From positions 30,876,001-30,940,000 of the forward strand of contig NW_026262637.1 of NCBI RefSeq assembly GCF_021869535.1: DNA of 64,000 nt, read 5' to 3'. Shown one piece after another: positions 10,014 through 39,612 of this stretch. The notes under the pieces were generated by a model that was given only the letters and a program-made list of their open reading frames with translations, searched no databases and was not told where the DNA came from. This DNA is from Mytilus californianus. Lineage: Eukaryota. A program made the position numbers and the translations under genes. Position 1 is the stretch's first letter, and every line of letters starts with the position of its first letter.

Positions 10014-10116
10014 TATGTATATACCTATATACCTGTATACCGGTAGTCAATGGATAGTGATATGAGTACTTTTTGTCATTCGCCTGGTGATCTAATATAT
10101 ACTGAACTACAAAACT

Positions 10117-11152: not shown

Positions 11153-14100
11153 ATACAAAGTTAACATTTGTGCTATTTCCGAACATTGGTTACGTACATA
11201 CCAGCTTCATGTACTTAACACTATAGATAATAACTTTGTCTCCATAGCAAAAGGTGTGGACATACATACTCCTGAATCAATGTCATGCAACAGTCGGTGT
11301 GGTGTAGCCTTTTTAGTGTCAAAAGACATTGTTCCATTTGTTACTGAAATAGACATTGACAGAATCATCGGCATCCAAGTTAACTTACCTAATGTACAAA
11401 CTCTTATTATTCTATCGATTTATTTACCAGCTACAACACAGCCTCATCAATTGTACCAGTATAATGTCGAACTTTTGCATGAAATTTGTTCTGTATATAA
11501 AGATGTGGGATCTGTCATACTAATGGGCGACTTCAATACAAAGATTCAAGGCCCGCGGTATAAATTTAATCCCGATGAAAGAAGTAGGCTTATGTATTCC
11601 TTAATACTAGAGTACGAATTGTTTTCAGTAAATACGCAAATGTTTTGCCATGGACCAGTAACAATGTTTCAATCACACGACGGTGGTCCGTCCACTGGTA
11701 TCGATCATATTCCTATGCCACTATCAGAAATTAGAAAGGGATTAAATGCAAAAGTTATAGACAGTCAACCTTTTTCAGTATCAGACCATCGACCAATATT
11801 AAGGTCAATAACATTAGAAAACTCAGTTTTAACTTACACTGAAGTGACCAATCAACTCGTTCCGTTTCGTGGGATCGTGCACGCAAGTATGGTTACATAC
11901 ATGATTATTTGTTCGCATTATCACAACACTTGTGGACGGCTGAATTTCCAAGACACGAAATTAATCAATTCATTATTGAGGAGTACTACAACAAGATAGT
12001 GCAATTAAGCAAGCCGAACAAGAGGCATTGCCGTATTCTATATTCAAACCTAATCTACAGCCATACTGGAATAAAAGTCTCACACATTTGCGCGACATAA
12101 TGCGTTTGAACAGATCGAATGGTTAAATAACTGTAACTGCCATGATATAAAATGCCGCGGATGTGTTTAATCATTACAAGCAGGCGAAAAGGGCTTTTCG
12201 TGACGCTCAGAGATCCGCTATTGACGAATACGAAAGTTATATTGCGCAGAAAATTGAAAATGACATTGACGTTGACCAAAAATCCGTATGGATCATTCTT
12301 AATAAGCGAAAACAGAAGCCACACACCTGTACAGCTTTAAAGAAAGATGGCACTTTATTTACGGATAGTAACGATCTAATGAGTATATGGTATGACCATT
12401 TTCAAAACGTTTTTTCACAATCAGTGTACAGTGAACCAGACCGTGAAACCTACATATCTGACCGCGTATCAACCATTCGTGAAAAAAAATAGAACAATCA
12501 ACGAGGAGGATGATGTACAATTTAGTTACTCTGATGTCATTCACATTTGTTCGCATTTGAAAAACAACAAAGCGTGTGGCCATGATCGTATTGCATACGA
12601 ACACATCAAATACGGGGGAAAACTACTCTTGAAACATTTACATCACTTGTTCAACATGATAAAACAATGCGGATATATACCTGGTGAGTGGCGAAAAAGC
12701 ATTTTTTTCCTTCTTTTTAAAGGTGGAAATAAACCTCGCACTGATACTAACTCATACCGTGGGATATCTCTAGTGCCAATTAAGTATCGCAAAAATATTT
12801 GAAAAATTGCTTGAGAACGAACTTACAAAATTGAGACCTGATTTTCCGAATCACCAGCAAGTTGCTTACCAAAAACAATTAAGTAGCAAGAATGCATCAT
12901 ATAATTTACAAGAAGTTACATTTCATCACATTGATAAAAGTGGACCCGTCAACATCGTCCTATTAGACAGTACTAATGCGTTTGACACTGTCCCACACGA
13001 CGGTTTGCGCATCAAACTCTACGAATATGGCATTTCGGCAAAATTATGGTGTCTACTTGATAATATGTATTCTGATCTCACGAGTGCGGTATTCTCTGGT
13101 GGAAAGTTGTCAAATTGGTTCAAATTGCATCGTGGTGTTAGGCAAGGAAGTATACTTTCAGCGAAACTGTACCTAATTTTTATCAACGACCTTATAGAGA
13201 AATTAGAGTCTTGTCAACAAGGTGCTTTTATACATGATCAAAACGCTAGCTCGCCTATTCAAGCTGACGATATTTCAATAATTGCAACTGATCGCCAATC
13301 TTCACAAGTTATGGTCAAAATTTGCGAGGAGTACAGCATCCGTTGGAGCTTTGCGTTCTCAGCAGGGAAAAGTCAGCTCTTACATTTTGGTAAACGTACA
13401 ACTGGAACTGATGTGCTACTATATAATGAACCAATATCGACAGTTAAGACAGCAAAAAATTGTAGAGTTAAGCTATATACGTGCCTTAAGTCGATGGATC
13501 GTACAATAGACGTTTGCAGAACCCTGCGTGCAACCGTTATATCTTTAATTCGTCTAGATGTTCATCCAGCTATTTTAAACCCTATTGTATGTTCAAAATT
13601 TGTAAAACAAGTGTGTTATCCGAAGGCGTTGTACGGATGTGAACTATGGGGCAAACTTACTTCAACTGAATGGTTAATGTTAGAAAGAACTCAACACTAC
13701 ATTTACAAAAATATTCAAGGTTTACCGAGACGCATACGAAGTGATATGTGCCTTCCGATGATCGGTTGGTTCAGCATTGAAAGCTATGTGGACGAGAAGA
13801 AACTTCTATTCTTAGGACGGACATGTAATCTTCTGTGCGAATCTGTATCTTTCCGTATATTGATTCGTAGAGTTAACGACTTAAAATACAATGACAGAAG
13901 CCATCCAAATTTGGGATTTACTGTTGACATTATGAACATTTTTCAGAAATATGATTTATCGACATATTTTGATAATTTCTGTGAAACCGGACTTTTTCCA
14001 ACACCTCTAGTATGGAAGCGTATTGTGAAAACAGCAGTGGCCGCTTTCGAGATTGTTAATTGGACAAGACGTATAAACTTTGATGATGACTTTGTTGTTT

Positions 14101-14530
14101 TTAAAACGATCAAAAAGCATATGTACCTCACTCTGCATGGACTGTAGCATTGAAGCATCCAAACCTACGAAAACAAGCACATTATTTGATTTCTGTTTGC
14201 TGTTTAGTAAGAGACAATGCCAATGGGCAATACATTCTCTGTGACAGATGTGGTAAAATGTTTTGGGATCCATTACTAAAAAGTAGTTCACGCTATTGCT
14301 TCATGTGACTATCTCGACGAAACACGTGATAACTTTTGGTGTGAAATTATAGATATCAATCCAATAACTTTCAGTATCTTCCTAGCAAACATGTCTGATG
14401 AAGAACTTTTTTATTACTTACTATCCGGCAATTCGGACAATTTCCCACTAGAAACTGACCAATTAGAGACATTCCAAGCCATATGCGTTCGATTTATCTA
14501 TAAATTTGGAACTTTACTACGAGATTAAAA
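11055..14530 (+). pseudogene. LINE ORF2 (apurinic endonuclease plus reverse transcriptase), several frameshifts
   Basis: Motifs are spread over ORFs 11055-11999, 12163-12492, 12392-12802, 12807-14147 and a downstream knuckle. Confidence 0.88.
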
Positions 14531-15472: not shown

Positions 15473-16327
15473 CTACACATTATCGTCTGTAAATAAGTGG
15501 GTGAATACATCCAGTTCACTTGCAGTCTGTTGTGTTTCGGCACTACGGTCCCCGTTTCCGTGGGACGATGAGGACGAGCTGGGAACAGCTGCCAGTTTAG
15601 TGCACATTGCAGGTTCGCTTGAGGAATCACCAACCCACGTACAAGAAGTCGGGATAACATTGTGAACTTCTGCGTTATGGTCTACAGAACTATGAGTCGG
15701 TTTTTCTGGTACAAAATGTTTTCCTGTCACACCAGTCGTTTTTTCTGTCCTTGGGACTGGTATTTCTGGTATTGGTTGTAGTTTAGGTGGCGAAGATATA
15801 TAACAGGGAGATACACATGTATTATGAACATAATTGTTTTCAAAAGGAGACTCCTGTCCTGACGCAGTAGATTCTGTCTGTGATTTTGATGCCTCTTTAT
15901 CATGTATCATGCTTGGACTCACCAGAGAAGTTATAATCCTGGACATTTGATTAGAAATGGTTTTATCATAAGGTGAGGTGGCGGGGGTGCTGCTGTCCTC
16001 GACATGAGTGGGTACATTTTGCTTTTCCTCTGTACCATCTGGTGACAGAAAATGGTGAATTTGATACACTTTGCTAGATGTCGGACTAATTACATCTGAA
16101 GCGACTCGATATGGGTCGTCAAATGTCCTCGACCGTTGTGATGTTGCATCAGAAGGCTGTGTTTGTGTTCGCTGGCTGTTTGGATTGATAAAAATGTTGG
16201 AACTTGAAGACTCTGACGGATTCTGCGCAATGTTTCCACCAAACGTTCCAATAGCCACACCTCCGGGGACCGACATTATGCTAATTACATTATGAGGCGT
16301 TGGTCCACAGGTTCCCATTGACATATT
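15473..16327 (-). CDS. SLC16/MCT gene, probable last coding exon (S/T/P-rich cytoplasmic tail)
   Basis: 283 aa ORF; acceptor cttgtag| at 16328 is phase 0 and matches donor CAG|gtaagt at 18094. No family motif, so it is assigned by splice phase only. Confidence 0.6.
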   Translation of the reverse strand, partial: NMSMGTCGPTPHNVISIMSVPGGVAIGTFGGNIAQNPSESSSSNIFINPNSQRTQTQPSDATSQRSRTFDDPYRVASDVISPTSSKVYQIHHFLSPDGTEEKQNVPTHVEDSSTPATSPYDKTISNQMSRIITSLVSPSMIHDKEASKSQTESTASGQESPFENNYVHNTCVSPCYISSPPKLQPIPEIPVPRTEKTTGVTGKHFVPEKPTHSSVDHNAEVHNVIPTSCTWVGDSSSEPAMCTKLAAVPSSSSSSHGNGDRSAETQQTASELDVFTHLFTDDNV

Positions 16328-18093
16328 CTACAAGTTTATAGTAAACATTTTCAACAGTCACAATTTAAACAAATGTTACAAGAACAATAAATAGATGTTT
16401 TTGGCTAGAGGTATAGGGGGAGGGTTGAGATCTCACAAAACATGTTTAACCCCGCCGCATTTTTGCGCCTGTCCCAAGTCAGGCCTTTGTTAGTCTTGTA
16501 TGTTTTTTTAATTTTAGTTCATTTATATGTTTTGGAGTTTAGTATGACGTCCATTTTTACTGAACTAGTACACAATTTTATTTAGGGGCCAGCTGAGAAC
16601 CACCTCCGGGTGCGGGATTTCTCGCTGCGTTGAAGACCCATTGGTGGCCTTCGGTTGGTTTCTACTCTATGGTCGGGTTGTTGTCTCTTTGACATATTCC
16701 CCATTTCCATTCTCAATTTTATTTATCTCTGAGATAATATGTTATCCTCAATTGACAAAGACATGCATATTTGTTTTCGTCTATTGTTTTGTCAGAAATC
16801 AGACTGTTGGATTTTTTATTTGAATTTTTTCACATTTTGTCATGTCGAGCCTTTTATAACTGACTATACGGTACGGGTTTTCCTCATTTTTGTAAACCGA
16901 GACATTTGATTAAATCCGCTGCTTTTGGGTTTTGTTGGAAAGTTGTCTAATCAGCAATTATACCGCCATCTCCTATTTTTTTTTTTTTTATAGTTTACAA
17001 TAAAGCATATGGTTTAACAGTGGATCACGAACGAAAGCCGGAATAGGAAGTAAAGAATTTATCGTCCACCATGTTTTTTACTCGATTCATTATCTTTCTT
17101 AGTGAATAAGCTCAGTGACGAGAACATATGTATGATGGAACTGGTATTGAAGTCCATCTTCCCGTACGATAAAGAATAAAATTTAACCAAAAAAGTGAAT
17201 CCATGATTTAGTGGTAAAGAGTTAAGAAAATGCATATTTTGCAACCTCGACAAAAGATTGAGTACAATTAATACAAATAATAAAAGGGTAATTTAGGTGT
17301 GGACTAAAGTTAAAACCAAGCACTAGTCTATTTGTTCTACAAATGGACTAAACATGAAAGAAATCCAGTTTTTATCACTACACGCGAATAATTTTTCACA
17401 TGTGCTTTGATTATGAGGAAAAGCTGACATTCAAATACAACTGTATGTTTGTTTAAGGGTCATGTTTTGTATAAATCTGTACAAATAATTGTATGAAATG
17501 AGAAAATCGGGTTACTTTTTAGAGTTATCACCCCACCCCCTACCTGAACTAACAAAATGTGTTTGACTTGCAGTGATTTCAAGATTGACTAGCACCCCCG
17601 AATTAAATGTTTCAAGCAGTCGAATTTCTCAAAAAAGGGGTATAAATTTTCGGTTTATCATAGCGTTTGTGACGGTCAAAATATATGGTTGATTGGTTGT
17701 TATTTGTTTAACGTCAAGTGGTAGGTATTGAAGAATATTTAGACTGAAAACAATAAACCCAGTACGTAGATTTTGCAAAGTTGGTCATAATGTCACTGGA
17801 AAAAGAGGATATTTCTTAGGACACATACGGACACCATATGAGTTGTTGTAAAGATTCTTTAATGTGCAGAGAGCTCTACACTCTCCTTGCAAGAAGACGG
17901 TTTGAATTAACATCTCCCGCATTCCGGACTGACGAGTTTGGAAGAGCATTTTACATCCATCTCAGTCAAACATTGTCAAACGAATGCCCCTTTGTAGTGC
18001 AATTGAATATTTTGATTTTCTATTCTTTAAAATCAAACTATTGAAATCCGTTAGGAATATTTGTGGCATTTGCCTTTCGAAAATTGAACTTAC

Positions 18094-18581
18094 CTGTATC
18101 ATATCACTTCTGGACTTTTCTGAACTTTTAGCAGACGTTTGGGAAATAAGGTGACCTGAAGAAGTTTTCAGGAGTGTTGCTATCATCTGTGCATTTTCAT
18201 GGAACATAGCTAGGGCTTCGTTAATATCAATTGGAACATGAATAGATGCTGGCGATGTTGATGTTTCTTGGTCTTTGTATCGTTTTGTTTTAAACCTTGT
18301 TTGGCCTTTATTCTTAAGATCTTTAGAGCAACCCAGATCGGTAAGCGTTGCTGACGAAGCATTTTCACGATTTCCAAGCGCCCGTGACTCTAGAATAACG
18401 TCGTCTCCAAAATCATAGTCATCTGCCACGTTGTACTCACTAACAGCTATCATGACATTGTCAGTTTGGGACGTACGCTGTGCCCAAGGTATCAGGAACA
18501 AAACCAACGCTCCGCAAATGATTGGAAGACCAGCCAAGTGGAATGCAAGGTCATATGACCCCATCATGTCGTATAAAGCTC
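18094..18581 (-). CDS. SLC16/MCT exon (TM12 and start of C-tail)
   Basis: GALYDMMGSYDLAFHLAG is a typical MCT TM11-12 motif; acceptor cgacag|, donor CAG|gtaagt. Confidence 0.85.
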
Positions 18582-19264
18582 CTGTCGAAATGTAAAACTA
18601 AGATAAGTATCTTTAATTATTTTATAAGAAGGATTCTATATACTTGGTAGATAGATCACCTGGCCAAAGGTAACATCAAATGATATGAAAGTGTGGCATG
18701 AGAAATCCAACAACATTACAACAGACCTATATGTTACTGTACTAAATTAATACCCGAAGGGTGAAAATCTCTATGATGTAGCAAGGTCACTGCAAGTATG
18801 TCATTTATGAATAAAGAAGTCAGAGTGGTTAAGTACACGTCAATGAGACAGCAATCCAACAACACAATTTTTAGCAAAGGAAGACTAGTGTGCATTTATA
18901 TACAAATGATTAAATCAACGTAGGCGACCAAAAAATTGACATGAACGCCATTACGGTCGTATCCTGGATCAGAAAAAACTCGCAGATATTCTTGACTTTG
19001 GCAGAGTTTGAGTGGTGTTGTGATATCAGTGGATGATAGGTAGCAATCGTATGTGTAGGTATGGTCAATATGAAGTTTCATACCTGCAAAATTACCCATA
19101 AATATGATCATAAATTATCAATGCAGTTTCGTTTCCACACCGTGATATCGGCAAGATGCATAACATAACATAAACTTGTGCGTTATTTAAACTCCCTCTT
19201 CAAAAACACTTACTGGAGTCATTAATATATAAACCTCAGTGAACAACGTATATAATTAACTTAC

Positions 19265-19634
19265 CTGCTAGGGGTGGTCCTGCGGTAAATGTTACTGAAC
19301 TGGTACCAACCAAGAAACCCCAGGCCAACACTGTATTGTCTACGCCAACCAATGTTGTAGTAAGGACAGGCAGTAAGACAACATAGCACCCATCCACTAG
19401 TCCAACACAGATTACATAAGCTGCAATTCCAGTGAAGGATTTCAAAAGAGGTAATAACATTACCCCGGTCCCAGTTACAACCATCGAAAACTGGTGCATG
19501 TGTAGACGATTCAAATAGCCATGCTGGATAATTTTCCCAAACACTATCCGACCAAATGCTGTACAAGCTCCAAGCATCATGACAAATATGGCCCCCTTTT
19601 CTGGAGGAATGCCACAGTCTTCTGCATACGCAAC
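19265..19634 (-). CDS. SLC16/MCT exon (TM8-TM11)
   Basis: Contains the conserved TM8 Arg (AFGRIVFGKI) and AGPPLAG; acceptor tttcag|, donor GCAG|gtaa; phases are consistent. Confidence 0.92.
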
Positions 19635-19988
19635 CTGAAATTAAGTTGCATTAGCCTGTGGCATATTATTCCGACGGTTGTCGTTTATATTATGTAAAAT
19701 GTTTGGATGTTTGGTTTTAATTTGATTTAACCAGATGGTAATACATGCTTTTATTTCTTTACAGTTTTTTTGTTGTTTTTTTTTTTTTTGCTTTTGAGAT
19801 TGTGCTCGCAGCTTTTAAAAATTTTAAATGATAAAATGAAAACTGATATCACATTTTTTTTTTAGATACCAACTAAAGACGTTTGCAATGCACCCAAACT
19901 TGAATTAAGTAAGTAAGAGATCACATGTGTATTTCTATTTTAGGGGTAAGTGAGTATGGTCAATATTAAAAAAAGATAGTATACTTAC

Positions 19989-20563
19989 TAAATGAACGTA
20001 CGGAATGTAGAACCCAAACATAACTAGAGTAATGGCTATTGTCCAAATTACAAACACACGATTCTTCCAGAGTTTTAGATCCTGAATAATCAGACGAATT
20101 GGTGATTGTTTCAACTTCTGCTCGTCAGTTTTCTTTTGGTTTGAAATCGGCTTGATGAACAACGAACAAATAGCACTAACCGAACACAGTCCGGCATAGC
20201 ACCGGAATGTACTTCTCCAACCATAGGCATCAATGAAGGCTTGAGACATTGGTGCGTAAATGAGGGTTCCAAAGCTACTTCCAGCAGTCATGATACCGAC
20301 TGCAATTGTCAGGTACTTGTCGAAGTATTGCGTGGCAATAGTCATAATCGGAGTTATACATAGGCATGTCCCAATTCCGTAGAAGACGGAAAATGTAACA
20401 AACATCATCTCTATTGAATGGACAAACGATGCCGCTAAGATTGATGCCGAACAAAGAAATGCTCCCAATACCATTACAATTCTGTTTCCAAATCTGTTTA
20501 CCAACATCGAAGCTATAGGTCCAAATGTCATAGACAGTCCATATGCTAAAGAACCGACCCAGG
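19989..20563 (-). CDS. SLC16/MCT exon (TM2-TM7)
   Basis: AWVGSL, GPIASMLVNRFGNR, QYFDKY..IAVG, YGWRSTFR and FYIPYVHL are MCT10-like motifs; acceptor atttcag|, donor TTA|gtaagt. Confidence 0.93.
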
Positions 20564-21047
20564 CTGAAATATAATCAAACTTGCCTTAATGTCGTGTTCC
20601 GCTTAATTTCAATATTTTTTAAAGGTTTTATAATAAGTGACAGAGACGAAAGCATGAGTAACGTGAAAGTTTCCCGGCATTGAAACAGTATGTAAGGTTG
20701 CTTTATTATTCATTTTATTATTGTTTTTGTTTGTTTTAACTACAGATTAATTAATAAACTACAGATTAATGTGGTTTGGGAAGGAGACAGATTTGAAAGT
20801 ATTTTTAAAATGCAACAGTATTTATTCTTTCATAAAGTGTAGATGTAATATTAGTCATTTCAGATATATATGGTATATTTCTTAACCTTCAAAAACCAGG
20901 GCCCTGACGATCTAACTTATGTATTGGATGACACGATGGACATTAGAGGGTTAACCCTCGGGTGATAAATTACGGTCATTTGGATCTGTCATTAGAATGA
21001 TAACAATATGATTATATAAGAGCAATGACTTAATATTTAAATACCAG

Positions 21048-21904: not shown

Positions 21905-22214
21905 CTTACAAATTTACAAATTATCTATGTGAATGATGCATTTACAACGCTCTTGAACTCTTTAACTTTCCTGCCTTTTCCATCACTGATAGTTTCGAAG
22001 GACGACGTTAACGTCATAAGCATGTGACGTTTGTAATGTAAAGGCAATGAGATTCGTGTAGACAAGGGAATCCAAACTCGTCTCCAATTAAAACACTATA
22101 ATGTAGGGGTGATTTGCACGGTTTAGTCACGCAATTTCAAGGGAAATATCCATTCGAGGAGAAACATTTTGTTTATATTTGAAGTGTTTCCCAAAAAGGA
22201 AACAAACTTTTTTA

Positions 22215-24712
22215 TGTATTGCTCATTGTCATTTTCCTTCATATGCTTTAAGTGACCACTACCCTGTATGCTTAAATCGAAAAATCAATACAAAGGTAAA
22301 GAAAGAAAATCATATCGAAATAAAATATAGGCGTTTCAAAAACTTTAATGAGGATGCCTTTTGTGCAGACTTACATCAAACCCCTTTTCATATTGTTGAA
22401 ATGGAAGAAGATATTGATATTTCTGTCAACAAATGGTATGAACTTTTTAATCAAGTTATTAACAAGCACGCACCAATGAAAACTAAAAGAGTAAAAATAT
22501 TTAAACAAGCCGAATGGTTCAATAAAGAAATTAAAAATTCCATTCAATACAGAAATATGTATCATTCAAAAAAAGATTGAGTAAACTTTAAAAAGTGGCG
22601 TAATAAAACAACGTCGTTAATATTTAATGCACAAAAGGAATATTATCAAAACGCTATATCTAGTTCCAAAAATAGTAAAGAACTTTGGATTCACATTAAA
22701 GAGTTAAATCAAAAAATGGATAATATTTTTCCACCTAAAATGCAGTATGAAAATCAAACTGTTTATAACCCCCAAGATATTGTTAATACACTAAATGTTC
22801 ATTTTTCTTCCGTAGCTGAAAAACTTATTTGAAATAATACTTCAGATATGGATTTTTCTAAGCTACAGACTTTTACTAGTAAAAAATTAAAGGAAACTGA
22901 AAATTTTAAATTAAAACTCATTTCTGTTGGAGAGGTGTGTTCACAACTAAAACACCTTGATATTAATAAATCCGCAGGTTTAGATGGAATTGGTCCCAAA
23001 TTTTTAAAGCTAAGTGCAGAGATAATATCGCCATCACTAACTTTTCTAATAAACAAAAGTATAACGTCGAATCGTTTTCCGCAAAAACTAAAACTTGCAA
23101 GAGTAACTGCTATACATAAAGGAGGACCAACAGATATTCCCTCCAATTATCGTCCAATTTCTATTTTAAATACCATATCTAAAATTTTTGAGAGACATGT
23201 ATGTACACAGTTATATGCATTCTTAAATAATAAAAAAATGTTACATATCGCTTAGTCAGGTTTCAGGCAAGGTCATTCATGTCAAACAGCGCTGACTATA
23301 CTAATTGATGAATGGTTAAAATATTTAGACAATGGAGAAATAGTTGGTACTGTATTTTTAGATTTCAGTAAGGCCTTATTAACCATGCCATACTTTTAGA
23401 AAAGTTAAAATTTTATCATATCGGAGGACATACGATAGATTGGATAAAATCATATTTGTCTGAGAGACAACAAGAAGTTCAATACGCTAACATTAAATCT
23501 GATAAATCGTTTGTAAAATATGGAGTGCCTCAAGGTTCTATTTTAGGTCCTCTGTTATTTTTAATTTATATAAATGATTTACCACTTCATGTTAAACAAT
23601 CCGACATGGATTTATATGCTGATGATTCAACATTGCATTTTCATAATAAAAACATTGAGAAAAATAAACAGCATATTGCAAAATGATTTAAATGCTATAT
23701 TACAATCTTGGTGTAACAATAACAGTATGAAAATTAATGCACAAAAAACAAAGTGTATGAAATTGGGTTCAAAACAAAAACTTACACAGCTATCAGAATT
23801 ATGTATTACCGTCAATGAAACATGTATTGAAAATGTCAATTCTTTCAAATTACTTGGAATTGACATTGATGAAAATTTAAGCTGGGAAGATCATGTTGAT
23901 CGTATATGCAAGATTATCTCATCTAAAATATCACTTTTGTTTAAAATTAAAGTATATTTGCCTATACACACAAGACAACTATTTCATAATGCATATATTC
24001 TACCATATATAGACTATTGTAGTTCAGTTTGGGGAAATTAATTACAAAAAGATTCAGATAGAATCATAAAACTTCAAAAAAGAGTAGCAAGAATTATATA
24101 TTTCTGTTCCATCTAATTTTATGTTTTCATCTTTAAAATGGCTATCTTTTACAAAAAGAATAAAATACCAACAATCAATTCTAATGTATAAAATTGTAAA
24201 TGGACTAACACCTGATTACTTAGCAATGCTAAATATTAATTATGTGCAACACCACAACTTACGATCTGTCTCTAATAATGATCTATTTGTCCAAGACCAA
24301 ATACAAATTTTTATAAAAAATCTTTTCATTATTCTGCAACAAAGGTATGGAATAATTTACCACTCAAAATAAAAAAATGTCGAAATGTGGAATTATTTAA
24401 GAAACATTGTTATAATCATTTTCTTGAAAATTCTATGCAAGTCTAATAAATTGTTTTCTTTCGTTTGTTGTAAGAATAATAAAATTTAATCAAAACTTTA
24501 CCAATTATTGCCATTTATTGCCATTTGTATGTTTGAATTATTGAATTGTGTATATACTAGTAACATATATACTAGTAATACTAGTAATATATATTGTATT
24601 TTAATGTATGAATGTATGAATGTTAACTGTATACATGTATTTTGTTTGAGAGCCTCAATGAAAATTAGACTACTTCTAATTGAGTTACCCTCTTTAAATA
24701 AAGAATTTATTA
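22215..24712 (+). mobile_element. 5'-truncated L2/CR1 (Crack-like) LINE with broken ORF2
   Basis: APE end LSDHYPVC; RT motifs NYRPISIL, GVPQGSILGPLLFLIYINDLP, YADD; 3' end GAGAGCCTC...GAGTTACCCTCTTTAAATAAAG. Confidence 0.9.
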
Positions 24713-28797: not shown

Positions 28798-29245
28798 ATG
28801 TAAATATGTAATACAAATTGTGTGTAGTTTTTAATGGAAGAAAATTTCATTTTTTTTAAATAACAATAATAAAAATAATACATGTAATAATAATTCTTTA
28901 TTTAAAGAGGGTTACACAGATAGCTGTAAAACTACTCTTCCCTGAGGCCCTCATGAAATGCATTGAAATATAACAAACAAAGAATTACAAAAATCATACA
29001 AATACACACATTAGCTAATGCATATGTAATTAATACATCACAAACTTTCCTTATTCATTTTAATATTTAATTTCCATGATTACTTATAAAAATGTGAAAC
29101 TGGACATAATTAACAATAATAAACATCTGTTTGTTAAGTAATATTATCTGTCCCTTTATCAGCATGAGATGACAGATTTACTACTCTACTTCACCATTTT
29201 ATACTCTAATAATGAAGTTACAGTAAATTTCAAACTATATGATAC

Positions 29246-30559
29246 TGTAACAAAATTGGCGTCCATCTATTAAAGTTGTATAGGATTTTACGGATTTTCG
29301 CGTATGTCTCATCAAGGGGATATAAGTAGCGCCTTTCATGAATTTATAAGTCAACTGCGATTGTCGGTTCCCTTTAAGGAAACTTGTCCCCCCCCCCAAA
29401 TTTGTGTATTGATATTGCTTTAATGGTATCGATACATTACTTTTGTTGTTATGTAGTTATTGTGTAAAGTATGGATAATTATGCTTTCAGATGTTGCTGA
29501 ATTTACCTTTATTTTGCATGCTCATGTGTGAAAATCCCAGTTCAAACATGGTTAACTGTTAAACTTTTATTATTCTTGCCTTTGTTTTTATATTCGGAAC
29601 ACCTCTCTTTTGTTCATTTCAATTGAAGTACACAAACGTTTTACCAAACACCCCGAACATAATTTTGGTAATCACCAGTTCCGGTTTTGGTAATTTAGGT
29701 ATTTTCCTAAATGGTAAATGGTAAACCAAAATGGTAAATGGTAAACCAATTCGGTAATTGGTTTACCTAAGTATAAATACAGCGGAACATTCACTAAGTC
29801 TTCAGCTCATATTTTACCCTGGGCAAGTAACTTTCGCTAATTCCAAGCGTTATAATAAAATTAAGTACCAGTTACCAGACCAAGTCGGTAGAACCAGTTA
29901 CCAAGCAGACGACAGATAACCATGTCTGAGGAGAATAGGTCCGTACATATTTTGGTTTGTTAATTCCTTTACGAGTTACACACGGAAATAACTTATTAAG
30001 TTAAACTTTATCTTTTGGCATTGAATTTGATTTACCATTTGCCGATTACCCAACTATAATAGTAAACTTTCTGGGTATATTTTTCCGCTATCCATTTTCT
30101 TTCATTTCACGATAGAAGGTTAATAATATATTTATCTATAAGATTATGATATAGTTAAGTTATTTAATATTTATCTGTATTGTTGATAATTAATGCATCT
30201 TAAAGTTAATATAAGTTGATTTTTATTTAACGAGTCTGTTATTCCTACAAACACAAATACGGAGAGTTACATACAAAACACACAAACACTTCCACAGGCC
30301 AAAAACATATTTCCAGATACACCCTTTTTTTTTTATCCAAGTCTTCACCTTACCAGAGTAACCAACCTAACCAGGGTGTGGAAAGAAACCAGAGTACCAC
30401 GAAACCAGGGTACCACGCTACCAAAGAAGGGTCTCCCGTCATAACTTTTATTTCATATATATAATTATGCATTCTTACAAGAACATTCTTATAGCAACAC
30501 ACTAAGGGATAAACATTTATAGTTTAACACTAAGGCCCGACCGCTCGGTTTTCGTTACA
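29246..30559 (+). repeat. 5' LTR (1314 bp)
   Basis: Begins TGTAACAAAATTGG, ends TTTCGTTACA; reads the same as 37271-38584. Confidence 0.97.
29772..29779 (+). promoter_or_regulatory. Candidate LTR TATA box (TATAAATA); AATAAA at 29854-29859
   Basis: Consensus match with an Inr-like TTCAGC about 30 nt downstream; position is inferred, not mapped. Confidence 0.55.
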
Positions 30560-30560
30560 G

Positions 30561-30572
30561 TGGTGGCAGCGG
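30561..30572 (+). promoter_or_regulatory. Primer binding site complementary to tRNA-Leu(AAG/UAG) 3' end
   Basis: TGGTGGCAGCGG one nt after the LTR is the reverse complement of CCGCTGCCA-CCA. Confidence 0.85.
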
Positions 30573-30650
30573 AGGCACGTACCTACATTTTTATATTCTT
30601 TAAATGAGTGTAATTATATTTAAGATAAGACATAAATAAAAATAAGTAAA

Positions 30651-32150
30651 ATGGATAGCGCGGAAAATAAATTTGAAACACCTAGGTTAACTGCCCAGGG
30701 TAGACCAGTGCTCCCCCGATCTCGGTCCTGTGAAATTTTCCATGATCTGACGCCGACCGGAGAGATAGGCATAAGAGTGAACCAAGATCAATGGCCCTCA
30801 CAAGAGAATACGAATAGATACGAAAAGGATGGTATACATCATGCTGACAATAGGCCATTGTCAGGGGATCTATCACCATCAAGGAAAGTGGCCATTGACC
30901 AAGCGAAAAACCCGGAAGTTTCAAATAGGGCAACGGTTGTGCATTTGGAAAAAAATGCAGCGCATACGGTAAAACAGAATTTTGGTGAAGAGTCAAGGAC
31001 TCTTTTGGACCATGCTGCCAGAGGGTCTAGGTATGGGTTTTGGAGTCAGAAAGCAGGGGGTTCTGCTGAGGGAGACTCCGGGAATACAAGACGAGTCGCG
31101 ACGTCTTGTGAATCCGATGCCCGACGGGGTAGATGGGATTCGGGAGATTTACCTAGGACTTTGGACCGGGGCGTACCCCATAATCAGGGGGCAACGTACC
31201 AAGCATTACCTTTGACGTCCCGCGGACGATTCAGAGTGGGGGTTAACGGGACCGACCATGAACACCGAACTGATGAAATGACCAGTAATATAAATTATGC
31301 TGGCATTAGCAATGAACCAAATTATGAGCGTGATTATGATATAAACTTACAAAATACAAAATACCACAAAAAGAAACCAGCACTTTATGATGGGGAGGGT
31401 AATTGGGAAGACTATTTAGTTCAGTTTGAATTAATTGCAGCAATTAACAAATGGTCTGACATAGAGAAAGCTTTAGAACTAGCTACTAGCTTAAGAGGTA
31501 CCGCCCAAAGTATTTTAACTGATTTAAGACCAGAGATGCGGACCAATTTTATCCAACTGACAGCCGCCTTAGCTTCTCGTTTTCAACCAGAAAACCAAGC
31601 AGAAATGTACAGGGCGCAAATGAAAAGTAAAATACGCGGACGCACAGAACAAATACCTGTGTTAGGCCAAGACATAAAACGTCTAGTAAGATTGGCGTAT
31701 CCATCAGCTCCAATGGAGGTTAGGGAACATTTAGCACGAGATTGTTTTATTGATTCCTTAAATGATGCTGACATGGAATGGGCTATCTTCCAGGCCAAAG
31801 CAAAAAATATTGATAACGCCATTCAAGTAGCTCTTGAATATGAAGCATTCCAAAATGGCAGACGTAAACACGGCACTAAGCCAGTACGTGCTGTAAATGA
31901 TAATTTTGATTTAAATAGGGAAATTTATTTGTCTGAACAAGTTGATGACATTTCAGGTCGTCTTGCAAAAATAGAAAATGATGAAAAAAATAAGAAAACT
32001 TTTTCTTGTTACCATTGTGGGGTTTCCGGTCATTTTAAAAGGGAATGTCCCCTATTGAATAACCGATCCCAACGGTTTGAAGGTAACAGACCTAACAACT
32101 CATTTCCAAGAAAAGTGGCAGACCAAATGACTGGTCGGGGAAACTATTAG
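30651..32150 (+). CDS. gag: Gypsy Gag (499 aa) with CCHC zinc knuckle
   Basis: YDGEGNWEDYL...W....KA..LA..LRG.A capsid-like region; CYHCGVSGHFKREC knuckle. Confidence 0.95.
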   Translation: MDSAENKFETPRLTAQGRPVLPRSRSCEIFHDLTPTGEIGIRVNQDQWPSQENTNRYEKDGIHHADNRPLSGDLSPSRKVAIDQAKNPEVSNRATVVHLEKNAAHTVKQNFGEESRTLLDHAARGSRYGFWSQKAGGSAEGDSGNTRRVATSCESDARRGRWDSGDLPRTLDRGVPHNQGATYQALPLTSRGRFRVGVNGTDHEHRTDEMTSNINYAGISNEPNYERDYDINLQNTKYHKKKPALYDGEGNWEDYLVQFELIAAINKWSDIEKALELATSLRGTAQSILTDLRPEMRTNFIQLTAALASRFQPENQAEMYRAQMKSKIRGRTEQIPVLGQDIKRLVRLAYPSAPMEVREHLARDCFIDSLNDADMEWAIFQAKAKNIDNAIQVALEYEAFQNGRRKHGTKPVRAVNDNFDLNREIYLSEQVDDISGRLAKIENDEKNKKTFSCYHCGVSGHFKRECPLLNNRSQRFEGNRPNNSFPRKVADQMTGRGNY

Positions 32151-35100
32151 TGGCTGAAACTGAGGACCAAGTTTTAGCTGAGACTAATTATGATTTTGAA
32201 GAGTCCAAAAATTTTGAAAAATTGAGTCAGATAAAATCAACCAGTTCTGATAGCTTATATGTAATTGCCAGTGTTTTTGACATGAAATTAAATTGTTTGA
32301 TTGATACCGGGTCCACTGTAAGTGTCCTTAACTCATCCATGTATAATACCATGTCCAAGAATGTAAAGCCAGAGCTATCCAATGCATGTACTGGTTTACG
32401 CATGGCTAATGGAAGTGTAGTTATGCCGATGGGGACTGCTGTATTTCCAGTACAGCTGAATAAAAAAATTGTTTATCACCGTCTCATTGTTGCAGACATA
32501 GATATACCAATGATAATTGGATTTGATTTTTTATATAAAAATAGTTGTATATTAGATATGGGAAGGAGAACCGTAGAAATTGACGGACAATTTATTACCT
32601 GTCAAAGAGAACATTGTTTAAATTCTATTTTTAAAATTTCGTCTGTTGAAGATGTAGAAATTCCACCCACTTGTGAAATGATTGTCCAGGGAACAATATT
32701 ACAGGGTACACCACATAAAGTAACTGGGTTAATTGAACCGGCAGGCCCTTTTCTCACCGAAAATGGCTGTCTTATTGCCAAGGCAGTGGTAAATCCTAGT
32801 CAGCAGTACTTACCTGTCCGCATTATCAATCTTAGTGAACAACCAGTTCAGTTATATAGGGAAGCAATTATTGGTCAATGTGAATTAATCAACAGTGATA
32901 CAATAGAAATAAATGTACTGTCTAAACAATTAAATGCTAGGGATACACTGTATCAAATAAGCAACCAAGAAGATGTTCTTCCTGAATATTTACAAAACTT
33001 ATATGAGAGGTCCATTTCACACTTAGAAAAAGAACAACAAGTCAAGGTTTTTAAACTTTTATCAAAATACAAAACTGCCTTTTCCAGGTGTAAATCAGAT
33101 TTAGGTAGAACTGATATTGTTAAACACAAGATTGATACTGGGGATACACCACCTTTTAAGATGCAACCCAGGCGTCTACCTATGGCCAAACGAGAAGTTG
33201 CATCCAAAGAAATAAAACGCTTACTTGATGACGGAATCATTGAACCATCTAATGGACCATATGCCTCACCTATTGTGTTGGTCACCAAGCCTGACCAGTC
33301 CACGAGACTGTGCATTGATTACAGAAAAATTAATCAAGTAACAAAACGTGATTGTTACCCCCTACCGTTAATAAATGACTCCCTTGACGCCCTGGGGGGC
33401 TCCTCTTGGTTCAGTAGTATGGACCTAAGCTCTGGATATTATCAGGTCGAGATGGACCCCATTGACAAGGAAAAAACTGCCTTTACCAGCCACGAAGGAT
33501 TATACCAATTTAAAGTTATGAGTTTTGGCTTATGTAATGCCGTTGCAACTTTCGAAAGGTTAATGGAAACTGTTTTAAGAGGTTTACATTGGAAAACCTG
33601 TATCTTGTATATTGATGATATAATCGTGTTTGCTAAAGATTTTGATTCCCATATCCAAAGACTGGATACAGTCTTGGAAAGAATATCCAATGCTGGTCTC
33701 AAAATATCACCAAACAAATGTAACCTTTTTCAGAAAAAGGTTAAGTTCTTAGGACACATAGTTTCTGAGGAGGGAGTTTCTACCGACCCACGGAAAATTG
33801 AATGTGTTAAAAATTGGCCACCATTAAAAAATGTCCATGATGTCAGAAGTTTTTTAGGAACATGTTCCTACTACCGTAGATTTATTCCTTCTTTTTCCGA
33901 CATTGCCAGACCTTTGAATAAATTAACTGAAAAAACCGCCAAATTCCTTTGGACAGAGGACTGTGAAACCTCTTTTCAAACGTTAAAAGAAAAGTTAACA
34001 CAAACTCCTATATTAGTTTACCCCTGTATGAACAGACCTTTTATCTTAGACACCGATGCCAGTGGATATGGTATAGGAGCCGTTCTTTCCCAAGTATATG
34101 ATGGCATTGAAAAACCTGTTGCATATTATAGTCGTTCTCTCAATAAACAAGAACGCAACTATTGTGTTACTAGACGAGAACTGCTTGCAGTTGTAGAAAG
34201 TGTCAAACACTTCCATCATTATTTGTATGGTACTTGTTTCAAAGTCCGTACAGACCATGGAGCCCTTAATTGGCTCTGTAAATTTAAAAATCCAGAGGGT
34301 CAAATGGCTAGGTGGATAGAAGTGCTTGAAACTTATAACTACAAAATTGAACATCGCCCAGGGAAACAGCATGGAAACGCTGACGGACTTTCACGCCAAT
34401 GTTTCCCATGCAATCATTGTTTTCGCCAAGAAACCAAAGATAAGGAATATCAAGAACAATACATCAGAGCTATCCAGTGTAATGAAGTACCAAGTACCAG
34501 TTTCCAGGAACCAGTAGATTACTGGTTGTCTCCCAGATCTGAAAAAGAAATCAGAGAGGCACAATTAGCAGACAAAGATTTAAATATTATAATGAAATGG
34601 TTGGAAACAAATTCTGGCCAACCTGAGTGGTCCGAAGTTTTAGTTCATAACACAAGTGTAAAAATTTTAAGGACAAAATGGAAACAGTTAATAATAAACA
34701 ACGGTGTTCTTTACATAAATTACCTTGATGTAGATTCAAATAAGATACTAAAACGGTTACTTATACCTAAAATATGGAGAGATGAAGTGCTCCAAATGTT
34801 GCACAATGATCCAGGATCTGGTCACCTCGGAGTCGGTAGGACTCTGGCTCGCACCAAAAGCAGAGTATATTGGCCTGATATTTCTAGAGATGTTAATCTG
34901 TGGTGTCAAAAGTGTTTGGTTTGCCAATCCCGCAAACGACCTGCTAGGAACGCTAGAGGTGGCCTTGGTCAATATGCTGTTGGTGCACCTATGGAACGCA
35001 TAGGTATGGACCTACTTGGTCCCTTACCCCAGTCTCGACAAGGAAATAAATTTATACTTATAGTGTCGGATTATTTTACGCGCTGGATAGAAGCGTACCC

Positions 35101-35833
35101 CATACCTGATATCCAGGCCCATACCATATGTAGAGTATTCATTGCTGAATTTATTTCTCGGTACGGAATTCCAAGACAAATTCACACTGACCGTGGTGCT
35201 CAGTTCACCTCACAACTGTTTAAAGAAATCTGTGATGCTTTTCGCATTGACAAGACTTTCACTACTGCTTTACACCCCCAAAGTGATGGTCTTGTTGAGC
35301 GATTTAATCGTACTGTAGAAGATATGCTAAGTAAAGTTGTTTCTCGTGACCAGAAAAACTGGGACGAAGTATTGCCAATGGTGATGCTAGCATACCGCAC
35401 GTCTGAACATGACAGTACTGGTCAAACTCCGAGCATGATGATGTTCGGTCGTGAAGCAGAATTACCAATTGATCTACTTTTAGGTCTACCACCCCATGTG
35501 ACACCAAGCACACATTCAGATTATGTAGCAAAGCTGATAAACAGACTCGATCGAATCCATACGGTAGCCTCCAAGAAAATGGAAGGTGCCCGTGACCGAC
35601 AGAAAAGGAACTATAACATTAAAATAAATAAAACACAATATTCGGTGGGTGCACTGGTTTGGTTACACGATACCACACGGAAAAAGGGACTGTGTCCAAA
35701 ATTACAAAACCCATGGGTTGGGCCCTACCAAATAGTAGAAATCATTTCGGACCTCGTCTATGTAATAAAACAATCACCACAATCCAAACCTAAAGTTATT
35801 CACCATGACAGACTCAAACCATATATTTGTTAA
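32096..35833 (+). CDS. pol: Gypsy Pol (protease, RT, RNase H, integrase), -1 frame relative to gag
   Basis: LIDTGS protease; LCIDYR and YIDDI RT; DTDASG RNase H; HHCC plus D,D,E integrase; WVGPY (GPY/F). Frame is open from 32096; the ORF-track start at 32150 is an alternative codon. Confidence 0.97.
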   Translation, partial: QLISKKSGRPNDWSGKLLVAETEDQVLAETNYDFEESKNFEKLSQIKSTSSDSLYVIASVFDMKLNCLIDTGSTVSVLNSSMYNTMSKNVKPELSNACTGLRMANGSVVMPMGTAVFPVQLNKKIVYHRLIVADIDIPMIIGFDFLYKNSCILDMGRRTVEIDGQFITCQREHCLNSIFKISSVEDVEIPPTCEMIVQGTILQGTPHKVTGLIEPAGPFLTENGCLIAKAVVNPSQQYLPVRIINLSEQPVQLYREAIIGQCELINSDTIEINVLSKQLNARDTLYQISNQEDVLPEYLQNLYERSISHLEKEQQVKVFKLLSKYKTAFSRCKSDLGRTDIVKHKIDTGDTPPFKMQPRRLPMAKREVASKEIKRLLDDGIIEPSNGPYASPIVLVTKPDQSTRLCIDYRKINQVTKRDCYPLPLINDSLDALGGSSWFSSMDLSSGYYQVEMDPIDKEKTAFTSHEGLYQFKVMSFGLCNAVATFERLMETVLRGLHWKTCILYIDDIIVFAKDFDSHIQRLDTVLERISNAGLKISPNKCNLFQKKVKFLGHIVSEEGVSTDPRKIECVKNWPPLKNVHDVRSFLGTCSYYRRFIPSFSDIARPLNKLTEKTAKFLWTEDCETSFQTLKEKLTQTPILVYPCMNRPFILDTDASGYGIGAVLSQVYDGIEKPVAYYSRSLNKQERNYCVTRRELLAVVESVKHFHHYLYGTCFKVRTDHGALNWLCKFKNPEGQMARWIEVLETYNYKIEHRPGKQHGNADGLSRQCFPCNHCFRQETKDKEYQEQYIRAIQCNEVPSTSFQEPVDYWLSPRSEKEIREAQLADKDLNIIMKWLETNSGQPEWSEVLVHNTSVKILRTKWKQLIINNGVLYINYLDVDSNKILKRLLIPKIWRDEVLQMLHNDPGSGHLGVGRTLARTKSRVYWPDISRDVNLWCQKCLVCQSRKRPARNARGGLGQYAVGAPMERIGMDLLGPLPQSRQGNKFILIVSDYFTRWIEAYPIPDIQAHTICRVFIAEFISRYGIPRQIHTDRGAQFTSQLFKEICDAFRIDKTFTTALHPQSDGLVERFNRTVEDMLSKVVSRDQKNWDEVLPMVMLAYRTSEHDSTGQTPSMMMFGREAELPIDLLLGLPPHVTPSTHSDYVAKLINRLDRIHTVASKKMEGARDRQKRNYNIKINKTQYSVGALVWLHDTTRKKGLCPKLQNPWVGPYQIVEIISDLVYVIKQSPQSKPKVIHHDRLKPYIC

Positions 35834-35891
35834 TGAAGGTTGAATGATATTATATTTTATCCCAAATTAATTATTGCTTTTCGCTTTTCAG

Positions 35892-36675
35892 TGAGAAAAA
35901 GAAAACCTATGACTGCCCCAAGTGTGACCAAAGCTACGACCTTATCAGTCAGCTGAAAAGACACCATTCTGATCGCCATGGGCCCAGATTGAAATGTAAT
36001 ACTGATGGGTGTATTTTCACATGTCCAGAAAGTAGAAGGTACATGCTGAGAAATCACATGTCAGAACAGCATGCCCAATACATCACAGCACCCATGGTAA
36101 ATTCAGAAAAATATCCGTTGTCACCATTGAGATCACCAACTCCGATTTCCTTATATGAACCAACTGATATAAATGGTAATGAGTTTGATTTCCTTTATAA
36201 TGCTTGCCAGGAAAGTGGTATTAACCTAGATTTCCCACCTCCCCGTAAGGTTTTAATACAGGAACAGCTGAATGAAAAGGGAGATGCTAATAATAACACC
36301 ATTCTTACACCTGTCAGTCTCAAACCAAGAGATTTGACCTCCGAATATTTGATGTGTCCGATCTCACCGGAAATACCAACTTATTTTACCTGTTCATCAT
36401 CATCAACCCGACCTAGGAATTCCGAGTCCAATCCACCAACCACCACATCGGCTCTACCAGTTACCGCACCTATTTCTCCAACACCTACTTTTTCAGCCAG
36501 TTTTCAGTTACCAGATGGAAGTAAGTATACCTGTACTACTTCCCTGGTACCTGATCCCAGCAACCCGAAAGAAACGGAAAAAAAGGACGCCGAAACACAG
36601 TGTGAGATTATGGATTTGGCAAATTACCAGAAGTATCTAAAATTTGTAGAAATTATGAACTTGTTTAAAAATTAA
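35892..36675 (+). CDS. Gypsy ORF3: two C2H2 zinc fingers plus P/S/T-rich tail, probably spliced
   Basis: Reading frame open from 35848 with no ATG before the fingers. CPKC-x12-H-x4-H (35914-35979) and C-x4-C-x14-H-x4-H (35995-36072); acceptor cttttcgcttttcag| at 35891. Confidence 0.75.
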
Positions 36676-36829
36676 TTTGGTGCCTTTGTCATTAATGGGG
36701 GTTGGATTTAGATTATAGTGTTATTGTGTATATATTTATTGGATGTAGGGGGGTGGACTTTAACTTTATATTGATATTGTGTTCATTTCATGATTGTTTA
36801 ACCTGTTTAAATATGTAACTTGTTTTTAG

Positions 36830-37020
36830 GAACATTCGTCTTGCGAAGAAGATATGTTGGTGTTATATAAACATTCGTTAAAATACACGGAAAACAATGT
36901 ATTAAAGAACATTCGTCTTGCGAAGAGGATATGTTGGTGTTATATAACATTCGTTAAAATACACAGAATTAGTTGCGATTAAGGAACATTCGTCTTGCAA
37001 AGAAGATATATTGGTGCTCT
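36830..37020 (+). repeat. ~77 bp tandem repeat (x2.5) in the Gypsy 3' non-coding region
   Basis: GAACATTCGTCTTGC at 36830, 36907 and 36984. Confidence 0.9.
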
Positions 37021-37256
37021 ATGAACTTTTAGCGGTAATAAAAGATCTGAAAAGACTGGGATATCAGGCTTCGCTTGAAGCCCCGTAAATTATGAACAAT
37101 GAACATTTCAAAGACTGTAATATATATAGATATTGTTATATATTGTTGTATATGTATGTTACAAAAATATTTCATATTATTGATGTTGAACCTTTATTTT
37201 TCTAATATTCAATGAATACTTATGTAAACTATGTTTGAGGACAAACATTATTTTTC

Positions 37257-37270
37257 AAAGGTGGGGAAAG
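37257..37270 (+). promoter_or_regulatory. Polypurine tract
   Basis: AAAGGTGGGGAAAG immediately 5' of the 3' LTR. Confidence 0.9.
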
Positions 37271-38584
37271 TGTAACAAAATTGGCGTCCATCTATTAAAG
37301 TTGTATAGGATTTTACGGATTTTCGCGTATGTCTCATCAAGGGGATATAAGTAGCGCCTTTCATGAATTTATAAGTCAACTGCGATTGTCGGTTCCCTTT
37401 AAGGAAACTTGTCCCCCCCCCCAAATTTGTGTATTGATATTGCTTTAATGGTATCGATACATTACTTTTGTTGTTATGTAGTTATTGTGTAAAGTATGGA
37501 TAATTATGCTTTCAGATGTTGCTGAATTTACCTTTATTTTGCATGCTCATGTGTGAAAATCCCAGTTCAAACATGGTTAACTGTTAAACTTTTATTATTC
37601 TTGCCTTTGTTTTTATATTCGGAACACCTCTCTTTTGTTCATTTCAATTGAAGTACACAAACGTTTTACCAAACACCCCGAACATAATTTTGGTAATCAC
37701 CAGTTCCGGTTTTGGTAATTTAGGTATTTTCCTAAATGGTAAATGGTAAACCAAAATGGTAAATGGTAAACCAATTCGGTAATTGGTTTACCTAAGTATA
37801 AATACAGCGGAACATTCACTAAGTCTTCAGCTCATATTTTACCCTGGGCAAGTAACTTTCGCTAATTCCAAGCGTTATAATAAAATTAAGTACCAGTTAC
37901 CAGACCAAGTCGGTAGAACCAGTTACCAAGCAGACGACAGATAACCATGTCTGAGGAGAATAGGTCCGTACATATTTTGGTTTGTTAATTCCTTTACGAG
38001 TTACACACGGAAATAACTTATTAAGTTAAACTTTATCTTTTGGCATTGAATTTGATTTACCATTTGCCGATTACCCAACTATAATAGTAAACTTTCTGGG
38101 TATATTTTTCCGCTATCCATTTTCTTTCATTTCACGATAGAAGGTTAATAATATATTTATCTATAAGATTATGATATAGTTAAGTTATTTAATATTTATC
38201 TGTATTGTTGATAATTAATGCATCTTAAAGTTAATATAAGTTGATTTTTATTTAACGAGTCTGTTATTCCTACAAACACAAATACGGAGAGTTACATACA
38301 AAACACACAAACACTTCCACAGGCCAAAAACATATTTCCAGATACACCCTTTTTTTTTTATCCAAGTCTTCACCTTACCAGAGTAACCAACCTAACCAGG
38401 GTGTGGAAAGAAACCAGAGTACCACGAAACCAGGGTACCACGCTACCAAAGAAGGGTCTCCCGTCATAACTTTTATTTCATATATATAATTATGCATTCT
38501 TACAAGAACATTCTTATAGCAACACACTAAGGGATAAACATTTATAGTTTAACACTAAGGCCCGACCGCTCGGTTTTCGTTACA
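37271..38584 (+). repeat. 3' LTR (1314 bp)
   Basis: Copy of the 5' LTR at offset 8025. Confidence 0.97.
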
Positions 38585-38604
38585 ATACTATATCTATTTT
38601 TGAT

Positions 38605-39612
38605 AAAATGCTTTGCTGAGCTCAGCTGGATACGACCGCAGAGGTCCAACCCTGAACAGTTGGGGCGAAAATGGACACAATATTCGCGCTTGATACAGGT
38701 CTGAATTTGGATTGTAATTTAATATTTGACACATAATAGGTTTCTGACACCGAGTAACTGTAGTCTAAGAACTTAGAATTGGTTATATGATTTGAATTTA
38801 TATTCAATTTTTTGTTTTTGTGAAATACACTATGCTGTTGCGTATTGACCCCCCCCCCCCCAAAAAAAAATTTGTTTTACCCCCCCCCCCCCCCCTTTTT
38901 TTTTGCAAACAAAAAAAATATTTGAAGAAATTTTCTTTTTAATTTCTGAAATCTGAAATGAAAAAAAAAATTGCCTCCCACAATTTATTTTTTACCCCCT
39001 CCCCCCCTTTTCCCAAAAAAAAAAATCTTTTCCTCAAGACATGGGCATAATTTCAATTCAAATTTCCATTGGAGTTTGCAACCATAATTACCAATTTAAA
39101 TACATCATAAAAGTCTTAAATAGATAATTTAAAAGCAGTGTAAGGGAGGAAATCCAACATTGTACAACATTGTACAATTTGGTTTTGGATTACCTCCCTT
39201 TCACTGCTTTTAAATTGTCCATTAACCAGGAAACCCTTGTTTTTTCCCCTTTTTGCCCCTTATTCCTAAATGGTTTGAGCCATAACCCCCCATAGCCAAT
39301 CCTAACCATCCCTTTGTGGTATGGAAACTTGTGGTATAATTTCAGAGAGATCCATACACTTAAACACAAGTTATTGTCTGGAAGTTACAAAAATGTTTAT
39401 TTTTGGCCCCTAATTCCTTAACTGTTGGTACCATAACCCCAAAATCAATCCCAACCTTCCTTTTGTGGTATTGAACCTTATGGTAAAATTTCATAGAGAT
39501 CCATTCACTTAAACTAAAGTTATTGTACGAAAACCAATGTGTCTTTGGACGACGACGACGCCAACGTCATACCAATATACGCCTGCAAAAATTTTTTGCG
39601 GTCGTATAAAAA
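38605..39612 (-). mobile_element. HINE-like element family A, compact ~1 kb copy
   Basis: Head GCTGGATACGACCGCAGAGGTCCAACCCTG shared with copies at 43292, 51038, 59632 and 60888; (GAC)n and terminal hairpin TATACG...CGTATAAAAA. Confidence 0.75.

Follow-up and report, generated by a model that had tools for sequence, protein, structure and literature searches.

LTR retrotransposons generally rely on host transcription factors, and DNA-binding activators of their own are a mark of the complex retroviruses. In foamy virus, a retrovirus with an env gene, a DNA-binding transactivator, Tas/Bel1, is encoded by the element near its 3' end and acts on the element's own LTR; to our knowledge Tas is not a C2H2 protein. 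Tas/Bel1 would be the functional analogue of the gene described here, ORF3 of a Ty3/Gypsy element, if ORF3 is read as a DNA-binding regulator. Among host proteins, ASCIZ/ATMIN resembles the predicted ORF3 product, being a transcription factor that has zinc fingers and, in a disordered region, motifs for LC8 binding, but it is a host gene and has many such motifs (PMC5963919; here and below, statements on published systems refer to the available parts of the cited texts). Descent from ASCIZ is not supported by the Pfam searches, in which one weak match (C2HC_ASCIZ, E 0.046, on the relative P0003) fell below the cut-off.

Among invertebrate LTR retrotransposons, Cer1 of C. elegans encodes CERV, a nuclear regulator that is made from a spliced mRNA and acts in RNA export (PMC10309623). 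ORF3 resembles CERV as a probable non-env regulator of an invertebrate LTR retrotransposon, CERV being spliced and, in models, multimer-forming. It differs in that CERV has a C4-type cysteine loop, shares exons with gag and has no homologues outside nematodes; moreover, neither C2H2 fingers nor an LC8 motif were found in the available description of CERV (PMC10309623). Errantiviruses carry env-F as their third ORF (PMC12992720, PMC13524379), from which ORF3 differs by having zinc fingers and neither a TM segment nor an env domain; a glycoprotein with a transmembrane anchor, as in env-carrying errantiviruses, is not what ORF3 encodes. The rotifer ORF3s (GDSL esterase, DEDDy nuclease) are likewise family-specific non-env cargo in the ORF3 slot, but they are enzymes or TM/coiled-coil proteins, and neither "zinc" nor "C2H2" occurs in the main text of their description (PMC5408684). 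Non-env third ORFs are also present in plant elements (PMC7264820, PMC6431247), where the additional ORF gene23 of Grande is antisense and has its own promoter, zinc fingers not being mentioned in the available part of its description (PMC7264820).

Because rotifer and plant elements have non-env ORF3s and Cer1 has a spliced nuclear regulator, a complex-retrovirus-like retrotransposon in an invertebrate is not new as a concept, and the original prediction, made from the DNA letters, overstated its novelty (PMC10309623, PMC5408684). Among the literature matches listed, with Repbase, Dfam, GyDB and most subscription journals lying outside the search, there was no description of a C2H2 third ORF of Gypsy elements, nor did term searches show one in the available passages of PMC6238403, PMC13524379, PMC2774666, PMC11952523 and PMC10294476. 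ORF3 apparently represents an undescribed type of Gypsy accessory gene, real and conserved, with the anatomy of a transcription factor; new here are its C-terminal LC8-type motif, a near-invariant Arg pair, a TGGTAA array in the LTR and in-phase splice donor candidates.

The full-length LTR retrotransposon occupies positions 29246-38584 of the window, i.e. the whole stretch of 64,000 nt that was analysed (Table 1). It has the TG...CA LTRs, target-site duplication, primer-binding site (PBS), polypurine tract, gag, pol domain order and Ty3-closest RT of Ty3/Gypsy elements (Metaviridae), and the best PDB match of pol was Ty3 Gag-Pol (E 9e-120). The identification as a Gypsy retrotransposon therefore holds, and the copy is intact, with identical 1,314-nt LTRs and a 4-bp duplication. 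The insertion is recent since every frame in the element is open, and the identical LTRs indicate that the element was recently active; its integrase is 98% identical to an M. coruscus integrase. As, in addition, every match that bears a species name (four in all) is a Mytilus gene model, the host is very probably a mussel. The PBS is, we assume, of the tRNA-Leu type, and no tRNA genes were found in the window. The gag/pol overlap (32096-32150, -1 frame) has a GGGAAAC slippery-type heptamer at 32138. The only AATAAA of the LTR lies approximately 80 nt past the TATA box with donor-like sites on either side (29827, 29939), and its closeness to the TATA box implies a short R and a U5 of about 680 nt; presumably the 5' poly(A) site may be suppressed by U1, as in retroviruses. 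The 3' UTR of the element folds somewhat better than shuffled sequences (z -2.3) and might harbour an RNA element; Rfam gave no match anywhere in the element.

Table 1. Positions of the element's features in the window.
Feature	Position	Strand	Remark
Target-site duplication, 4 bp	left 29242..29245, right 38585-38588	+	flanks both LTRs
5' LTR, 1,314 nt, TG...CA	29246..30559	+	identical to 3' LTR
TGGTAA-type array, candidate binding sites	29641..29765	.	just upstream of TATA box
TATA box candidate	29772..29779	+	in 5' LTR
AATAAA poly(A) signal candidate	29854..29859	+	presumed role; 3' LTR copy (37879-37884) would act
Candidate coding mini-exon in LTR, then GT donor 29939	29922..29938	+	five codons and two bases
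Primer-binding site	30561..30572	+	read from sequence
gag, one CCHC knuckle	30651..32150	+	
Alternative phase-2 donor candidate	31031	+	in gag frame, after 126 codons
pol, PR-RT-RNaseH-IN	32096..35833	+	-1 frame relative to gag, overlapping
Polypyrimidine tract and AG acceptor, phase 2	35872..35891	+	
ORF3 main exon, 260 codons	35892..36675	+	env slot, after pol
C2H2 finger 1, C-x2-C-x3-Y-x5-L-x2-H-x4-H	35914..35979	+	
C2H2 finger 2, C-x4-C-x14-H-x4-H	35995..36072	+	
Acidic-aromatic short helix, conserved	36181..36213	+	candidate activation motif, presumed role
S/T/P-rich linker	36373..36492	+	sequence and length variable among relatives
Predicted beta-hairpin, conserved	36490..36543	+	model confidence low
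LC8/DYNLL-type linear motif, D-x-x-T-Q-C-E	36586..36606	+	directly before terminal helix
Amphipathic C-terminal helix	36616..36669	+	
77-nt tandem repeat, 2.4 copies, 38-nt sub-period	36830..37016	+	3' untranslated stretch
Polypurine tract	37257..37270	+	
3' LTR, 1,314 nt	37271..38584	+	

The ORF3 exon begins at 35892, 58 nt beyond the end of the pol stop (35833). An exon of roughly 260 codons behind a clean polypyrimidine acceptor had been predicted at this distance from pol, and both parts were recovered: the acceptor AG (35890-35891, pyrimidines at 12/14 nt) ranks first among the 244 YAG sites of the element, and an open run of 260 codons occurred in 0/2,000 dinucleotide shuffles, the longest shuffled run being 165. 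The frame is free of stops from 35848 to 36675, and the feature start given in the original prediction, 35848, is the stop-to-stop start and has to be replaced by the exon start, 35892. Of the two fingers said to precede any ATG, finger 1 does so and finger 2 does not, the first in-frame ATG (36043) lying inside the latter. With this ATG inside finger 2 and a stop closing the frame at 35845, ORF3 requires either a different start or an exon further upstream. Two other routes were considered and rejected, i.e. readthrough or frameshifting from pol into ORF3, which is ruled out by the stops at 35831-35836 and 35845-35847, and use of the first in-frame ATG as main start, which would cost the protein its most conserved part (all of finger 1 and half of finger 2). 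The predicted need for splicing thus follows from the anatomy (stops after pol, internal ATG, acceptor and phase), and ORF3 is probably made by splicing of a sub-genomic mRNA.

Two candidate donors match the phase 2 of the acceptor at no fewer than 6/9 consensus positions, one in the LTR and one in gag, and both types have precedent in Drosophila env mRNAs (PMC12992720). The ATG of the LTR mini-exon is the first one past the TATA box and has an A at -3. Its donor, 29939, matches the consensus at only 6/9 positions, and the mini-exon is suggestive only because the same test was passed by 8% of 2,000 shuffles. A further donor-like site, 29827 (7/9), is non-coding and supplies no ATG; it was set aside as possible only with a non-AUG start.

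The spacings of the two C2H2 fingers, one canonical and one a C-x4-C variant, are as predicted, finger 2 having a 14-residue spacer. As in classical C2H2 fingers there are two Cys and two His ligands and, in the model, a beta-beta-alpha fold, while in Pfam the fingers matched zf-C2H2 only weakly, with an E of 0.045 that falls below the cut-off of that family. AlphaFold (25 sequences) gave a confident finger pair with 43 residues at pLDDT of at least 90, which overlays DNA-binding tandem fingers, best those of YY1 (Z 6.1, rmsd 1.8 over 51 residues); with Z under 8 this match is generic and does not tell DNA, RNA and protein binding apart. Foldseek with the model returned no match at E ≤0.001, and the Atlas returned generic C2H2 clusters only, with recognition below threshold, and no usable match for P0001. 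Kruppel-type arrays have a TGEKP-type linker that puts seven residues between His and Cys; here the linker between the fingers is five residues in 28/28 family members, which sets the family apart from that class. Position +6 of the finger 1 helix is Arg in 27/28 family members and position -1 of finger 2 is Arg in all rows of a 25-row alignment. The finger table leaves out P0012 and the fragments P0011, P0013-P0015 and P0021, with P0032 standing for P0033-P0040, and the family alignments leave out P0020, P0022, P0026, P0028, P0029 and P0049, which are generic zinc-finger matches.

The LTR site array that had been postulated is present as an enrichment of TGGTAA upstream of the TATA box, where seven exact copies lie within 142 nt. 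Each LTR has 11 copies against 1.85 expected, and any 6-mer was as extreme in 2/1,000 shuffles; the copy number is inflated by a 20-nt tandem duplication inside the array that the shuffles do not model, and four copies also lie inside ORF3 itself. LTR arrays usually serve host factors. On the recognition code as we understand it, the +6 Arg of finger 1 and the -1 Arg of finger 2 would read adjacent GG, which occurs in TGGTAA and counts for a DNA-binding reading. The weakness of this match is that the predicted readout covers two bases only; moreover, the +3 Gln of finger 1 would, on the same assumption, prefer A where the LTR motif has T. A second cluster, of ACC-type repeats with a period of 8-16 nt, lies in the downstream LTR (30350-30425) and, on the opposite strand, shows a relationship to the TGGTAA array.

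Beyond the fingers, the region predicted to be acidic and Pro-rich proved to be mildly acidic (8 D/E vs 4 K/R, residues 61-125), its conserved part being the short acidic-aromatic helix. The predicted S/T/P tract (62% S/T/P across residues 161-200) and amphipathic C-terminal helix (pLDDT about 70) were both found. The model of full-length ORF3 is uninformative (pLDDT 44.7), with the bulk of the chain modelled as disordered. No TM segment had been predicted, in agreement with a highest 19-residue hydropathy of 0.62; on this value, and with no env Pfam family, env identity was rejected, while the presence of a signal peptide would depend on the upstream exon. Domain searches found no chromatin-enzyme domain in ORF3 or its relatives.

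The LC8-type motif fits the published one at positions -4, -1, 0 and +2, with a small residue at -3 and a Cys at +1 that deviates from the consensus as given in the available texts (PMC3078936, PMC6607443), and lies in a low-confidence region of the structure model. An anchor of this type is present in the last 35 residues of 16/26 family proteins, representing about 8 independent groups, and in ≤1.1% of shuffles for each protein, the pattern having been fixed only after the alignment had been viewed. Among the 10/26 proteins in which it is absent, several look truncated, while P0043 and P0046 look full-length. The distant tier of relatives (see below) has a canonical TQTD instead of TQC.

The first search for ORF3 relatives gave 10 matches among 308 candidates, a representative library gave 25 at E ≤0.001, and of 8,000 longer proteins scored in two profile searches, 1 and 21 matched. 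A scan of bacterial and archaeal contigs yielded 0 loci and one stretch that matched without a locus. Four Mytilus gene models are among the relatives, one of them starting at the internal Met, and in P0002, P0031 and P0041 the integrase is joined to the ORF3 exon 7 residues ahead of the position of the first Cys. These models are automated predictions of unknown support and hence speak for linkage and a recognisable acceptor, not for expression. Constraint differs by domain: relative to P0041, 52/53 residues of the fingers are identical (98%), 266/296 of the integrase (90%), 82/100 of the middle part and 17/31 of the linker (55%; fingers against linker, p = 1e-6).

Relatives at 37-42% identity retain the fingers, a PLRSP motif, the acidic-aromatic helix, the hairpin and the terminal helix, while their linkers vary in length. 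Their predicted leaders end L-F-S or L-S-S, matching the place of the translated acceptor, as a pyrimidine tract would give. One close subfamily, P0003, P0004 and P0006-P0008, has a Met of its own 15 residues before finger 1 and may therefore need no coding first exon. Taken with the Mytilus models, these relatives speak against a recent host capture confined to one copy, and the same integrase junction in three of the models bears out the original prediction of an accessory gene that is real, conserved and not an env, and that moves along with the element. A distant tier (P0030, P0032-P0048; many near-identical variants, mostly on contigs of 0.1-5 Mb) has the finger pair in common (profile match 99%, 62 columns), and showed no alignment with the close tier past the fingers. 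Behind the finger pair its proteins have a basic stretch of the KRRR type, then an S/P linker that is long and variable, and after this a helix and either one or two motifs of the TQT type; the tier could represent the same cargo in other hosts or in other transposon types.

We propose, at roughly even chances, that ORF3, made by splicing, binds DNA, probably as a dimer, and regulates the LTR of its own element, most likely as an activator. Specifically, a sub-genomic mRNA from the 5' LTR would join a short ATG-bearing exon, ending at donor 29939 or 31031, to the acceptor at 35891. The product would begin with the two fingers, continue with an activation-type acidic-aromatic helix and a disordered linker, and end in the LC8 motif and a helix; host LC8 would pair two such chains into a four-finger dimer, and this dimer would bind the repeated TGGTAA upstream of the TATA box in the LTR and most likely raise transcription of the element. 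Since two fingers read only about six bases, LC8 dimerisation together with a repeated LTR site makes a coherent design. An extension of this proposal to a wider invertebrate Ty3/Gypsy lineage that includes the Mytilus and distant tiers, with an LC8-dimerised transcription factor in the env slot that binds a co-evolving LTR array, is more tentative, and we consider it possible rather than probable.

The strong internal acceptor means that intron-containing RNA must be exported, a task that CERV performs for Cer1 from a spliced mRNA (PMC10309623), and ORF3 could be a Rev/CERV-like RNA exporter in which the fingers bind genomic RNA that is unspliced, multimers form through LC8, and the hydrophobic helix at the C-terminus is an export signal. 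RNA binding is within the reach of C2H2 fingers, the fold matches include a complex of TFIIIA with RNA (Z 4.6), and weak zf-C2H2_jaz matches, below cut-off, were seen in distant members. A response element could be sought in the 77-nt repeat and the 3' UTR, which is moderately structured (z -2.3), but the retrotransposon has no Rfam match. We nevertheless regard an exporter as unlikely, because the conserved Arg occupy canonical DNA base-contact positions, the acidic-aromatic helix is conserved, and TGGTAA is concentrated upstream of the TATA box, so that most copies would fall outside the transcript's 5' end.

Distinctly unlikely, in our view, is an anti-silencing factor that binds element DNA and either blocks heterochromatin or competes for the LC8 of the piRNA co-transcriptional silencing complex. 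LC8 dimerises the Drosophila PICTS silencing complex via TQT motifs, but a Panoramix equivalent outside insects is not known from the available part of that source (PMC7861614). Distant ORF3 members have one canonical TQT and a second TQ-like site, and the identical LTRs show that the element has recently been active. As LC8 is an abundant hub, however, a single motif would presumably be a poor decoy, and ORF3 has no detected chromatin-enzyme domain.

There is a slim chance that ORF3 instead helps particles or integration, possibly as a fusion to the gag N-terminus via 31031, by tethering the complex to chromatin or particles to dynein. The phase-2 donor candidate in the gag frame and the LC8-type motif would suit such a role, whereas readthrough fusion to the integrase is blocked by the stops at 35831-35836 and 35845, and LC8 is mostly a dynein-independent dimerisation hub (PMC6607443, PMC7861614). 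Finally, although some copies are decayed (with late frameshifts in P0031 and P0041, and no first Cys in P0002), a non-functional passenger, be it an ORF that arose by chance or an exon recently captured from the host, is highly improbable given that such an ORF arose in 0/2,000 shuffles, that constraint differs between domains, that relatives at 37-42% identity have the full architecture and that no named host gene among the matches has the finger signature.

If ORF3 is the LTR-binding activator that we propose, the element would contain a compact autoregulatory circuit that can be tested, and the ORF3 slot would gain a new function. C2H2 proteins, which usually serve the host in repressing transposons, would here have the opposite role. 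On the wider-lineage reading, Tas-like positive feedback would exist in env-less retrotransposons, which would spread a factor together with its binding sites through host genomes. Apart from function, the Mytilus gene models fuse these exons to integrase or to host genes, which is a warning for annotation. P0031, P0002 and P0041 are chimeras of the element family, P0031 additionally having gag joined to a set of EGF-like/TM exons from the host.

Elsewhere in the window, a LINE-like element lies in fragments (coiled-coil ORF, endonuclease and RT) at 10096-14147, and additional RT remnants lie at 22113-24041. The minus strand at 17962-20585 carries exons of a gene for a major facilitator superfamily transporter, and an S/T/P-rich open frame at 15473-16327 may be a further exon of that gene. 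A dispersed repeat of approximately 190 nt (38602-38789) starts 18 nt past the 3' LTR and has four more copies, at 43290, 51035, 59630 and 60886, and the region from 39 to 64 kb is filled with several satellite-like arrays.
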